From UHGV virus genome UHGV-1630393: DNA of 25,276 bases; one strand, given 5' to 3'. A program made the position numbers. Each line of letters begins with the position of its first letter. The first letter of the stretch is position 1. Source of the stretch: a virus. Shown piece by piece: positions 3,001-6,000 of this stretch.

Positions 3001-6000
3001 GTTGCTTTTGCTGCTCTGTCAGGCGATTAAAAGCTGTTCCGACAGGATCGAGTTGAGCAATCAGACGTTGCAAAGCAGCAACCTGTTCATCATGCGCTTT
3101 TGCTGCTTCTCGTTCTGCCTGAGCCTCTCCTGTTAGCTCTCGCCGCGTTTCCTGTATTTTTCGGCTGTAATTATCAAACTGAGAGCCATTTATTTTCCCG
3201 GATGAAAGTGCTGCATTAAGTTCATCCTGCTGTTGGTCAAGATTTCTTAGCGCCGCGGCCAGAGGGTCGATCTTGTCCAGCATTCTTTGAAAGGCCTGAG
3301 CCTGAGCTTCCTGCTGGGCAGCAGCAAGTTTTCCGGCCTTCGCGGCTTCTCTCTGCGCTTGCGCAACCCCGCTCAATTCCGCTGTAGTTTCATTAAGTTT
3401 ACGGGCAAGAAATTCATATTCTTCTTTATCAATAAGCCCTTTGCCGAAATATTTCTTTAATTCAGAATAGCGTCGACCGACAGTATCAATTGCGGCACCT
3501 ACAGGATCAATAGCTGCCTTTAATTTTGCGAGCGCGTTCTTCTCATCTTCTGTTGCCCTGGTCACTTTCCCTGCGCTATTTGCAGCAGTTTCTCCGGCCT
3601 GCGTCATTTTGACTAGGGAGGAGGTCAGATTGTCAGCATTATTTTTCGCTCCAGTGCTATCAATAATTATTGCAAGACGCGAAGTTTGCTCTGTCATTTA
3701 GTTACTCCGGACAAATAAAAAGCCCCGCTTGATAAGCGGGGCCAGACAACAGAGGAAAGGAAATTATCAGAAACGATAACCAATACCGGTCATCCAAGTA
3801 CCTACTTTCACATCGCCCAATTTGGTGTACTCATAGGATGCGTCAACTACCCAATTTGGTACAGGATTAAACTGAATACCAGCACCATATACAACCGAAG
3901 TCTTGCTTGAAGAGTCAGAGTATCCCAGAATCGTCGCTTCAGCACGTCCATGCGCTACACCTAATAAGCCATATGCACTGAAGTAATCATTGAAACGATA
4001 GGCTGGACCGGCAGCTAGTGAATAGTAATCCAGTTCTCCATTTCCAATTTTAGAGCCTGCAAAATAATAATCGTATTCTTGATTTGTGTACGTAAATGAA
4101 GATGCAACGCCCCATTTATCATCCAGCTCATAGCGATACTTAATATTTACCCCTGAAGGATTCTCATCAAGGCTTTCTCCACCGGCTTTAACATGGCTTT
4201 GGGCATAACCAAGAGAAATAGTATTCTGCTTCAATTCAGCATTTGCAATGCCAGTTGCAAACAAGGCTGAAGCGATAATGGTAGTCAACACTGCTTTTTT
4301 CATAAAATCACCGTCATTTCACAAATCATTGTTATAACAGCCAGAATTAATCTGGCTGGCAGCATTAAAATATCCACCACATTCGATAGTCAACTATCAA
4401 TCTCTCATCAAACTATATGTGTGCACATTGTAATTCAGACAATTACTAAAAAATATTAAATTAATTAATCAATATCCCATCAACAGTTTTGGATTGAGAA
4501 ACATACTGATCATCCAGCGCAAAGATCACTGCTTCAAATTCATCACTATCTATCAATATTGGGTGTGCTTTTAAGTAGTCGTGCACGTCAGATATTGATA
4601 AAGGCAGCGGAACCCCGGACATGCCCGCATAACGCCTGGAACGAGACATTACTGAGTACGCATACAATAACTCACGGACAACGGGGTCTATTTCTGGCTC
4701 CGGTATCGGTGGCAACCTGAGTTTTTCTCTCGTCCACCTTGCTTTTCCCCCTTTTCGCCCCCGAACTCCGATAACCACCGCTGGGCGGCTATGGCTTTTT
4801 TATCGTATCCTGCTTCTGCTGCTCTTTTCCCTGGGCGATGCTGGCGGCTTCAGCAAGAATTTGCCAGTACAACTCTGGATTCTGCTTGAGCAGCGTGGCC
4901 CCTCGCTCTGGTGTATATTCCAGCGCGACCTCAACCCCATCCACCAGTTCACCAACCCCTTTCCAGTCTTTCAGTAAATAACGAGCGGCGTTATCAATAA
5001 GTAAATCATCAACAGAATCCACCTCGTCGACCTTTGCAATATCAAATTCTTTCGTTCCGACATGCAAACTGGCATCCATTTTCTCTATGTGACGACGGAT
5101 TAATGCATTACGGGAGCGATACTGATCGTTATCGCTGCTTGCCACCAACAGTTTTAACCCATCTACAGGTTTTAAGTCCTTCATTGGCGTAAACCAGCGT
5201 TCTCCACCGATGATAATTTTCTGATTAAGAATAAACATCCATAACCTCATTCAAAACGTCCCTGTAGTGCAACACCACAGGGGAAATAACGGAAAATCAA
5301 CTAATCGCCTCAGCACTGGCTTTTGCGATCACGGCAGCCGGAGAGGCTTTTTTTCTGGTTATCGTAGGCGCTTCATCTGCTGCGGTAATGCTCAGTTGAA
5401 CCTGGATAATGTCGGTATTACCACCGTCAGGCCATTCACCTGACACCTGAACCTTCGGAAAACTGAAAGTGTATGCCCCCTCTCCATTCGAAAGCGTGAA
5501 GCTGAACGGAACTGTTTCTCCAGTCAGTGTTTTACTCCAGATTTCCCACGCGGCTTTAGACCATGAAAGCGTCACCGTACCGGACGGTGTAAAGGTAGTA
5601 GGAATATTTGCTCCTGCATAAGGCGAGCCAGTCCCGATACAACGCTGAGTCTGGAGTTTGTTATCGAACTGAATATCAAAACTGTCGATACAAAAACCGT
5701 TACCTCCGGCAACACCATTCAGGCTTACTGCTGAAACCTCCTTAAACGAATAACGTAGCTCTCCTGCGCTATCCACAGGTTCGCCTGTGATAAAATTCGT
5801 ATCATCGGCCTTTGATTCCCAGTCCAGCCCGGCAAAGGTTACGGTCGCCGTAATATCACCATCGTTAGGGATCTGCATTTTCCATGACCCCACCTGCGCT
5901 CCTCTGATGACAGAGGCAATTCCGACATCGGACGCATAGGTCGCCAGAGAAAATGTTATTCGCTCATTTCCCATTGTCAGAGAATCGCCTGACCATTCCG

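Follow-up and report, generated by a model that had tools for sequence, protein, structure and literature searches.

Work on the gene 15 moron of phage HK97 is said to be that of Juhala et al. in 2000 and Cumby et al. in 2012. The term moron was coined for gene 15, which sits between the genes for the tail chaperone and the tape measure; it is expressed in the prophage state, and its product gp15 is a superinfection exclusion protein (PMC3594210). It has been described as a self-standing unit that carries both a promoter and a terminator, and was probably captured from the chromosomal gene yebO (PMC3594210). Lom, the outer-membrane barrel protein of phage lambda, is reportedly expressed by lysogens and, at a high level, late in infection. 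Ail of Yersinia, E. coli OmpX, and Rck and PagC of Salmonella belong to a common family of 8-stranded barrels; the activities of Ail include adhesion and the binding of complement regulators, heparin and fibronectin. A functional metagenomics study of 2025 found that metagenomic outer-membrane beta-barrel proteins prevent phages from adsorbing; lambda Lom, when overexpressed, protected strongly against lambda-vir and not against T7, OmpX gave no protection, and the authors proposed an anti-adsorption role in late infection (bioRxiv 10.1101/2025.02.28.640651).

The window analyzed here, a stretch of 25,276 nucleotides (virus genome UHGV-1630393), belongs to a Rac-family lambdoid prophage of type II enterotoxigenic E. 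coli. It contains a clean but ordinary example of a moron, in the very slot where morons were first described. As with HK97 gene 15, this is a single extra gene that is missing from close relatives; the cargo, however, is unrelated, since gp15 is a small inner-membrane protein and the gene described here encodes a 178-aa Ail-type outer-membrane barrel. Prophage expression has been demonstrated for gp15, whereas the Ail-type gene is known here from its sequence. With lambda lom and the Lom homologues of Stx phages, Gifsy-2 and Fels-1, it shares membership of PF06316 and the character of a prophage outer-membrane barrel gene in the tail region, on the late strand. However, lom lies between J and stf, and the Ail-type gene between T and H. 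The initial annotation had implied, by comparison with lambda lom, that this position is unusual, an impression removed by HK97 gene 15 in the same slot (PMC3594210).

Extent and distribution of the cassette

The cassette and its flanks comprise the following features:

464..3697, minus strand: tape-measure gene, the downstream flank (TMP_2, E 5.8e-81; TMP_4; Tape_meas_lam_C)
3695..3708, minus strand: GGAG Shine-Dalgarno (3705-3708) and ATG (3695-3697) of the tape-measure gene, from alignments
3711..3743, minus strand: predicted intrinsic terminator, a 10-bp stem with 3-nt loop (3721-3743) and a T-run (3711-3720), from folding
3767..4303, minus strand: Ail-type ORF, 178 aa on translation
4461..4778, minus strand: T-like ORF, the upstream flank, part of the G/T chaperone pair at 4461..5250
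4789..5250, minus strand: tail assembly chaperone G (phrog_313 'Tail assembly chaperone', E 1.1e-46)

As initially annotated, an Ail/Lom-family gene is present between G/T and H. It lies on the minus strand, a point left unstated in the initial annotation, and close relatives lack it at the exact junction. The coordinates given for the unit, 3713-4460, are accurate because they reach from the T-run as far as the spacer's end, and the AT-rich spacer ahead of the gene (4304..4460) is indeed exactly 157 bp long. Judged from alignments, a single-gene cassette of about 0.72-0.78 kb takes the place of the 163-bp T-H spacer of nearly all relatives. On the minus strand it extends from about 4420 or 4485, depending on the placement of the left junction, down to about 3721. 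In alignments with insert-less relatives the gap runs from the 3' end of T to the start of H, and 3695-3708 is backbone sequence common to those relatives. Both flanks find matches, at approximately 89.5% identity, in ten phage records and in some 1,058 genomes of E. coli with the 163-bp spacer, over a span of 1,383 bp compared with 2,001 bp here. The cassette is, in the sense used for morons, extra DNA between genes that are adjacent in related phages.

Among 1,078 complete E. coli genomes with a Rac-type tail module, about 1,058 (approximately 98%) have the 163-bp spacer and no cassette. The cassette occurs in 20 of 5,426 genomes, every time at the T-H junction and in three alleles, and each of these 20 genomes has an Ail/Lom family gene annotated in the matched region. 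A comparison of the cassette DNA with 50,697 phage records gave no match. The base composition is also unlike that of the neighbours, albeit with a modest contrast: GC content is 31.2% in the spacer and 41.7% in the coding sequence, compared with 44.7% in the tape-measure gene, 45.7-45.9% in G/T and 45.6% in the whole window.

The direction of the event, insertion as opposed to loss in the majority, is assigned by parsimony only. Were the cassette ancestral, the 163-bp spacer would be a deletion scar, and the hairpin of insert-less relatives a leftover of the cassette terminator. Those relatives do carry a hairpin, weaker than that of the cassette, and a T-run ahead of the H ribosome-binding site, and homology to insert-less phages resumes at GGGCTTTTT, within the 3' arm of the hairpin. 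Moreover, three alleles exist, and synonymous divergence in one is saturated (pS about 0.8 in the centre), which shows the cassette to be old at this site. We nevertheless regard an ancestral cassette as quite improbable. The hairpin stems differ in sequence (ACCCAC/GTGGGT in insert-less relatives, GGCCCCGCTT/AAGCGGGGCT in the cassette), and the 163-bp spacer, near-identical across vB_EcoS-885R8, K-12 Rac and a chicken isolate, has no homology to the cassette except in its last 25 nt or so. With some 98% of the genomes lacking the cassette and having a spacer of equal length, ancestry would need either one early, very successful loss or many identical deletions. The Ail-type gene was probably captured from an enterobacterial chromosome, since its nearest relatives outside E. 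coli (60-70% identity) are monocistronic genes on chromosomes, with similar GGGGCTTTT terminators.

Family and predicted structure of the 178-aa protein

The ORF can be divided into two parts:

4238..4303, minus strand: signal peptide codons (MKKAVLTTIIASALFATGIANA), by inspection, with putative cleavage after ANA
3767..4237, minus strand: mature 8-stranded outer-membrane beta-barrel, 156 aa plus stop, from homology and model; the C-terminus is GYRF

The 178-aa protein exceeds the PF06316 family threshold (Ail_Lom, 96.2 bits, E 3e-27; cut-off 23), which places it in the Ail/Lom/OmpX family, and also matches Pfam OMP_b-brl (95.4 bits; cut-off 28.7) and phrog_108 'Lom outer membrane protein' (E 9e-47). 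The original Ail/Lom label thus stands for the family; within the family, sequence comparison places the protein with the Ail type and not with the Lom type. The match to Y. pestis Ail 3QRA reaches 192 bits (E 8.8e-56, 54% identity), compared with 66.6 bits (E 2.7e-17) for Lom (9wso_C); in the comparison that gave the Ail match, OmpX has an E-value of 3.8e-29. Identity to phage Lom homologues is just 33-44%, and to the Lom of a sister prophage 35%. The long third-loop insertion of Lom is missing from the 178-aa protein and, given also the similarity scores and a position other than between J and stf, the gene does not qualify as an orthologue of lambda lom. The best NCBIfam model is OmpX. However, the protein scores 134.1 bits against the OmpX equivalog (NF006917, cut-off 176 bits) and 91.3 bits against the Rck-type 'resistance to complement killing' equivalog (NF011777, cut-off 258 bits); because both scores are under the cut-offs, it is orthologous to neither.

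The closest characterized protein is Yersinia Ail (3QRA/3QRC, 2N2L), with 54-55% identity over the whole mature chain, the same length and the same loop lengths. The AlphaFold2 model (pLDDT 88, 8 strands) superimposes in Foldseek on Y. pestis Ail 3QRC/3QRA with a target-normalized TM-score of 0.94-0.95 and an rmsd of 1.4-1.9 A, and OmpX also matches structurally (TM 0.93). The protein is thus predicted to form an eight-stranded antiparallel beta-barrel. In Yersinia, by comparison, ail is a chromosomal gene, and the loop residues of Ail are unlike those of the prophage protein; the surface loops, in which the Ail activities reside, are the most diverged parts.

By inspection, the protein has a Sec signal peptide and a C-terminal aromatic beta-signal. 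The putative cleavage site reads MKKAVLTTIIASALFATGIANA/ELK; the Ail crystal-structure chain can be aligned from residue 26 on, and the N-terminus of the model forms a helix over residues 3-15, with pLDDT low at 14-23. At the other end, G175, Y176 and the terminal F are invariant in 34 homologues. The cargo, as modeled, is a small Ail-type outer-membrane protein in which a Sec signal peptide precedes an 8-stranded barrel that bears four short surface loops.

Decay of the surrounding prophage raises the question of whether the Ail-type gene is a silent passenger with no current function. Related Rac prophages are often degraded, as in the ydaY/ynaA remnants of K-12 and IS1 insertions, and in the window the T frame itself is broken. 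The G/GT tail chaperone pair with its programmed -1 frameshift was reportedly described by Xu, Hendrix and Duda in 2004. In the window, a slippery heptamer, A AAA AAG, lies at 4801..4795, but the -1 frame offers no full T ORF: translation in it ends after 34 codons, leaving a truncated GT of 165 aa because of a 1-nt deletion within 4737-4751. A -2/+1 frameshift was considered and rejected in favour of the deletion, because Ceylon31, which is 99.9% identical, has an extra G and the normal -1 arrangement. A GT of 234-241 aa results from the -1 shift in Ceylon31, 357900, RM10740 and phage 885R8; the frame is therefore intact in the nearest relatives, Ceylon31 and 357900, which argues against general decay.

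In addition, the Ail-type ORF is intact in the three alleles inspected (window, RM10740 and S1-INA-02-A), and its annotation in all 20 genomes argues in the same direction. Between the window and S1-INA-02-A alleles, which are near synonymous saturation, dN/dS is approximately 0.22 (dN 0.28, dS 1.27), and the gene is under purifying selection. Conservation extends to the signal peptide, the YRF at the C-terminus and every residue that defines the barrel. A gene carried silently is, on these grounds, highly improbable.

Transcription signals around the gene

Features of the spacer and the antiterminator gene are as follows:

4307..4312, minus strand: Shine-Dalgarno-like GGTGAT, read from sequence, 3 nt before the ATG
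4338..4358, minus strand: predicted 8-bp hairpin, CAGCCAGA-UUAAU-UCUGGCUG, in the probable 5' untranslated region
4362..4420, minus strand: conserved upstream block of 59 bp, a candidate promoter or regulatory region, from allele alignment
4421..4460, minus strand: distal spacer directly after the T-like ORF stop, a variable junction
21826..22368, minus strand: Q-like late antiterminator gene, from profile matches; upstream and in the same transcriptional direction

The hairpin and T-run reported ahead of the H start are borne out by folding, and the gene has, at the sequence level, its own downstream terminator with a 10-bp G+C stem. On the minus strand the hairpin (3743..3721) reads GGCCCCGCTT-ATC-AAGCGGGGCT and is followed by TTTTATTTGT; its centroid structure has a free energy of -18.3 kcal/mol (z = -3.66), and none of 200 shuffled sequences is as stable. 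Across the three alleles the stem is invariant and the loop variable. The predicted terminator ends 14 nt ahead of the tape-measure ATG. An Rfam scan of 3500-4900 on both strands at a permissive E-value gave no match at gathering score; five of the six weak matches, including all with E below 0.5, overlap the terminator hairpin.

The initial annotation further argued that such a terminator must be leaky for the tail genes beyond it to be expressed. Standard Q antitermination answers this argument: no special leakiness is needed for read-through because a Q-like antiterminator gene (DUF1133, E 2e-102; Phage_antitermQ, 32.4 bits, cut-off 26; phrog_753 'anti-termination protein Q-like', E 9e-76) is located upstream and reads in the same direction, and all late genes share the strand of that gene. 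The Q-like antiterminator is probably the reason why the terminator does not block the tail genes, its role at this site being drawn from the lambda paradigm.

For the separate promoter that the initial annotation thought likely, the signals are mixed. A consensus promoter scan of the coding strand of the spacer found no consensus-grade sigma-70 site, and the best candidates in a sigma-70 weight-matrix scan, made with a rough matrix of textbook frequencies, are equalled by shuffled AT-rich spacer, 48% of the shuffles reaching as high a score. The one feature that speaks for a promoter is the conserved upstream block. Its identity to the 70% allele is 78%, compared with 65% for the mature coding sequence. 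Within it, TTGACT (4393..4388) comes ahead of TATTTT, at a spacing of 15 nt, or of TTTAAT, at 18 nt (4372..4364); ATATAGTT with TATAGT (4417..4412) is also present, and both TTGACT and ATATAGTT are unchanged in all three alleles. The conservation of a block with TTGACT and TATAGT argues for a regulatory region, and an own promoter for the Ail-type gene is plausible from the sequence. The adjoining distal spacer (4421-4460) has no homology between cassette alleles, with 37.5% identity between the window and S1-INA-02-A and with 14 of the 40 positions deleted in RM10740.

No homology links the block to the sequences upstream of the chromosomal homologues compared (Salmonella, Proteus, Yersinia and two metagenomic contigs), which suggests that any promoter here did not simply arrive together with the gene from those relatives; descent from a known ail promoter could not be traced in these regions. 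PhoP-box-like repeats (xGTTTx-N5-xGATTx) in the block match at 4/6 and 3/6 positions, and the idea was dropped. Closer to the gene, the 62-nt stretch 4304-4365 folds at -16.4 kcal/mol (z = -2.70, equalled by one of 200 shuffles); in the S1-INA-02-A allele the hairpin is weakly kept (z = 0.22), and the significance of the hairpin at 4338-4358 is uncertain. The GGT of GGTGAT is kept in all alleles.

Proposed working and prophage setting

We consider it probable that the cassette works as a classical moron: a captured Ail-type gene with its own transcription in the lysogen, Q-driven late read-through and a function at the cell surface. In the lysogen, the gene would be transcribed from a weak or regulated promoter within 4362-4420, and the transcript would stop at the hairpin at 3721-3743, keeping the tape-measure and distal tail genes silent. 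Upon induction, Q-modified RNA polymerase would read from the late promoter across the toxin, lysis, head and tail genes and through the terminator; the Ail-type gene would then also be expressed late, and H, M and L would be translated from their own ribosome-binding sites. The 178-aa protein would be exported by Sec, inserted by BAM and alter the cell surface, and the altered surface may confer complement resistance and/or adhesion. By homology to Ail, serum resistance or adhesion is its most likely role; a phage-directed role is possible.

In such a phage-directed role the barrel would serve the phage and not virulence, hindering the adsorption of the same or other phages, either as superinfection exclusion in the lysogen or by keeping new virions off infected or lysing cells. 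Expression would come in bulk from late read-through and be low in lysogens, an own promoter would be dispensable, and the pair of strongly diverged alleles at this one slot, alike at their ends, would reflect cassette exchange in an arms race between phages. The block of phages by barrel proteins, overexpressed Lom included, is consistent with this, although OmpX has no such effect (bioRxiv 10.1101/2025.02.28.640651), and the HK97 moron in the same slot is itself a superinfection exclusion protein (PMC3594210). The location inside the late operon, on the late strand, and the absence of a convincing promoter in the scans point the same way, but the terminator and conserved block are more in keeping with a separate transcription unit than with a gene expressed only late. 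Divergence among alleles is deep in the barrel and loop part and the ends are conserved, as expected of a surface protein in an arms race; the overall dN/dS of 0.22, however, gives no sign of gene-wide positive selection. Two sister prophages carry Ail-type and Lom-type genes together, at two different sites, which suggests non-redundant surface functions, yet the protein is far nearer Yersinia Ail (54%) than Lom (35%). On balance we find a barrel that primarily benefits the phage unlikely. As a weaker corollary, the hairpin ahead of the tape-measure gene, which occurs whether or not the cassette is present, might be a conserved attenuator that sets the ratio of chaperone to tape-measure protein.

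The cassette read as a classical moron is well delimited: its gene, predicted terminator, probable regulatory region and exact boundaries are defined, with some 1,000 insert-less relatives available as controls. The prophage is of medical relevance as a converting one: as the reference to other virulence cargo in the initial annotation correctly indicated, it already carries LT-II A/B and pertussis-like AB5 toxin genes. If complement resistance or adhesion holds true, prophages of type II enterotoxigenic E. coli would bring three virulence functions together; if the barrel blocks adsorption, the recent anti-phage observation on Lom would extend to Ail-type proteins. Either outcome would leave current concepts unchanged. 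A text search of the literature found no account joining an LT-II prophage with a Lom gene. A link between the cassette and the toxins was considered and rejected, as the 95% and 70% alleles of the cassette sit in Rac-type prophages that have trkG and no toxin genes.

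An Ail-type gene within the tail operon

Throughout this part of the window the genes lie on the minus strand. The initial annotation had described an Ail/Lom-family gene between the tail chaperone genes G/T and the tape-measure gene H, preceded by an AT-rich spacer of 157 bp and followed by a hairpin with a T-run just upstream of the H start. This description is correct in every particular, the strand alone having been left unstated.

Gene order and parts of the cassette
5297..6259, minus: tail tube gene, upstream
4789..5250, minus: tail assembly chaperone (phrog_313), upstream flank
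4461..4778, minus: T-like ORF, upstream flank
4304..4460: spacer, 157 bp, 31.2% GC (45.6% for the window)
3767..4303, minus: Ail-type ORF, 178 aa (Pfam Ail_Lom, 96.2 bits, cut-off 23; OMP_b-brl; PHROG 108 'Lom outer membrane protein')
3743..3711, minus: terminator-like hairpin and T-run, GGCCCCGCTT-ATC-AAGCGGGGCT then TTTTATTTGT, between the Ail-type stop codon and the tape-measure ATG
GGAG 3705-3708 and ATG 3697: tape-measure start signals, 3' of the hairpin
464..3697, minus: tape-measure gene, downstream flank (TMP_2, TMP_4, Tape_meas_lam_C)

Within the Ail/Lom/OmpX family the protein belongs to the Ail type, and RefSeq already annotates the gene as 'Ail/Lom family outer membrane beta-barrel protein'. 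In a search against solved structures the top match, over the whole mature chain, was Yersinia pestis Ail (3QRA; E 8.8e-56, 192 bits), followed by Escherichia coli OmpX (105 bits) and lambda Lom (9wso_C; 67 bits). An AlphaFold2 model built from 34 homologues (pLDDT 88) has eight strands, and its best structural matches are Ail entries (TM 0.94-0.95, rmsd 1.4-1.9 A). By inspection, an apparent Sec signal peptide, MKKAVLTTIIASALFATGIANA, stands at the N-terminus and GYRF at the C-terminus. The protein shares 54% identity with Yersinia Ail and 35% with a Lom from a sister prophage. Lom's long third-loop insertion is absent. The protein is not a Lom orthologue. The NCBIfam equivalog cut-offs for OmpX (134 versus 176 bits) and Rck-type proteins (91 versus 258 bits) were not reached.

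The position of the gene, which had been implied to be odd, is that of gene 15 of HK97, the first-named moron (PMC3594210). Ail/Lom-family genes are also common as prophage cargo, with 399 phage records giving protein matches, none of which reaches 60% identity. By homology, complement resistance, adhesion or both would be the default function, but the loops, which carry these activities in Ail, are the least conserved parts of the protein. A serious though rather unlikely alternative is that the protein acts against phages late in infection by blocking adsorption, a role suggested by a 2025 study in which metagenome-derived outer-membrane beta-barrels stop phages from adsorbing, overexpressed Lom defends against lambda-vir but not T7, and the authors propose an anti-adsorption role late in infection (bioRxiv 10.1101/2025.02.28.640651).

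Distribution, alleles and origin of the cassette

The window represents a Rac-family prophage of type II enterotoxigenic E. coli, located at the ttcA-uspF site, and shares 99.9% identity over 2 kb with Ceylon31, NADC1036, 0-4 and other strains. A 2-kb query across the locus matched 1,078 of 5,426 complete E. coli genomes, but with full coverage in only 20. In the remainder both flanks match at about 89.5% and span 1,383-1,385 bp rather than 2,001 bp, and ten phage records show the same pattern of flanks without the cassette. In the alignment with one insert-less relative, phage vB_EcoS-885R8, similarity fades over the last T codons and resumes at the T-run before the H ribosome-binding site. 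The cassette as query returned the same 20 genomes, every time at the T-H junction, and had no DNA match in 50,697 phage records. In the pig strains ETEC1717 and ETEC1718, the 2-kb region of chaperone, cassette and tape-measure genes is interrupted by an IS1A element.

Three alleles can be distinguished, present in 12 genomes (at least 99.5% identity), seven genomes (95.3%) and one genome, S1-INA-02-A (69.9%). Ceylon31, the one prophage with the first allele examined over a wide flank, carries LT-II and pertussis-like toxin genes. Prophages with the second and third alleles are Rac-type and contain trkG but no toxin genes, and the cassette is therefore not tied to the toxins. In addition, the prophages of RM10740 (second allele; 29790-30389 of its locus) and S1-INA-02-A (29907-30506) have a canonical Lom-type gene of 199 aa between J and the tail fibre gene, so that each tail region holds two members of the Ail/Lom family; the Ceylon31 LT-II prophage has no gene at that site.

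None of the three alleles inspected has an interrupted reading frame, and the annotation of each of the 20 genomes places an Ail/Lom family gene under the match. Between the window and S1-INA-02-A, dN is 0.28 and dS 1.27 (ratio 0.22); against RM10740 the ratio is 0.36, from few changes only.

Identity of cassette segments between the window and S1-INA-02-A
Distal spacer, 4421-4460: 37%
Upstream block, 4362-4420: 78%
5' UTR-like segment: 72%
Signal peptide: 88%
Mature coding sequence: 65%
3' UTR, terminator and H ribosome-binding site: 94%

Synonymous divergence (window 3770-4303 against 2618-3175 of the S1-INA-02-A locus L003) is near saturation in mid-gene (pS about 0.8) and 0.28 in the signal peptide. 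This difference and the uneven identity indicate that the alleles are mosaic, with a barrel and loop part that is much older than the cassette ends. Such a mosaic is consistent with allele exchange through the conserved ends; alternatively, the phage backbone may have homogenised the ends.

Outside E. coli, the nearest homologues (60-70% identity) lie on chromosomes and are apparently monocistronic, each followed by its own hairpin and T-run. A Proteus prophage homologue (59% identity) lies at a different place in the tail cluster. Capture of a chromosomal ail-type gene is the simplest history. The common GGGCTTTTT at the right joint hints that the terminators may have served as microhomology. 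The terminator hairpin stands between two near-identical octamers, TTGTCTGG and TTGTCCGG (3744-3751 and 3709-3716, minus strand), and insert-less relatives have one TTGTCTGG(AG), 3' of their hairpin; the octamers may be a trace of joint formation, or chance.

Transcription of the cassette and the tail genes

The moron reading is essentially supported, and its weak point is the promoter. A consensus scan found no sigma-70-like site on the coding strand, and a rough weight-matrix scan gave three near-equal candidates.

Promoter candidates from the weight-matrix scan
4442..4412, minus: TTGTCT-19-TATAGT
4393..4364, minus: TTGACT-18-TTTAAT
4393..4367, minus: TTGACT-15-TATTTT

These are not above background, as 48% of the shuffled versions of the spacer reach equal scores. 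A regulatory region is nevertheless favoured, since the upstream block is more conserved than the mature coding sequence and TTGACT and ATATAGTT are invariant in all three alleles. The mRNA 5' end could be marked by a hairpin predicted at 4338-4358, though the diverged allele keeps it poorly. The upstream block has no homology to the upstream regions of chromosomal homologues, and an Rfam scan of the region found nothing. On balance the spacer is somewhat more likely than not to carry its own promoter, probably a weak or activator-dependent one.

The terminator hairpin is strong (centroid -18.3 kcal/mol, z = -3.66), with no equally good fold among 200 shuffles. It had been argued that it must be leaky for H, M and L to be expressed, but leakiness is not needed if a Q-like antiterminator acts on the late transcript, and a candidate lies on the same strand.

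21826..22368, minus: Q-like antiterminator gene (DUF1133 and Phage_antitermQ above threshold; phrog_753)

From this gene to the tail genes the same strand carries the pertussis-like toxin, holins, endolysin, LT-II A/B, terminase, head and tail genes. In the lambda model, intrinsic terminators are ignored by Q-modified polymerase, so the hairpin should stop only transcripts begun at a moron promoter, and H, M and L would be insulated in the lysogen. The proposed mechanism, a moron combined with Q antitermination, is an ordinary one.

A hairpin also precedes the H ribosome-binding site in Rac-type prophages without the insert, among them the K-12 Rac remnant, but it is weaker (ACCCAC-TTCG-GTGGG and a T-run). 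A terminator-like structure at the T-H junction is therefore tolerated, perhaps used, with or without the cassette. The T-H spacer of these insert-less prophages, 163-165 bp long and nearly identical in a phage isolate, K-12 Rac and a chicken isolate, ends in this small UUCG-type hairpin and T-run (3399-3470 in locus L001; about 485-560 in L030 and L031).

Downstream of the Q-like gene, the late region contains two AB5-type toxin operons (17475-18612 and 20180-21437, minus strand) that flank the holin and endolysin genes. One encodes the A and B chains of LT-II; the other, a small B subunit together with an ADP-ribosyltransferase of the pertussis-S1/scabin-like kind.

Reading frame of the G/T chaperone genes

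A GT protein of 234-241 aa results from a -1 shift at A AAA AAG (4801..4795) in Ceylon31, 357900, RM10740 and phage 885R8. The window has one G fewer than these four in the run GGGGGAAAAG-CAAGG (4751..4737, minus strand), and its shifted frame ends after 34 codons, giving a truncated product of 165 aa. The missing G reflects a sequencing error in a homopolymer or else a mutation that would cripple tail assembly. In S1-INA-02-A the G stop codon is altered (CCATAG to CCATTG, at about 2116-2130 of L003), the zero-frame product is 165 aa, and RefSeq flags the G gene as a pseudogene.
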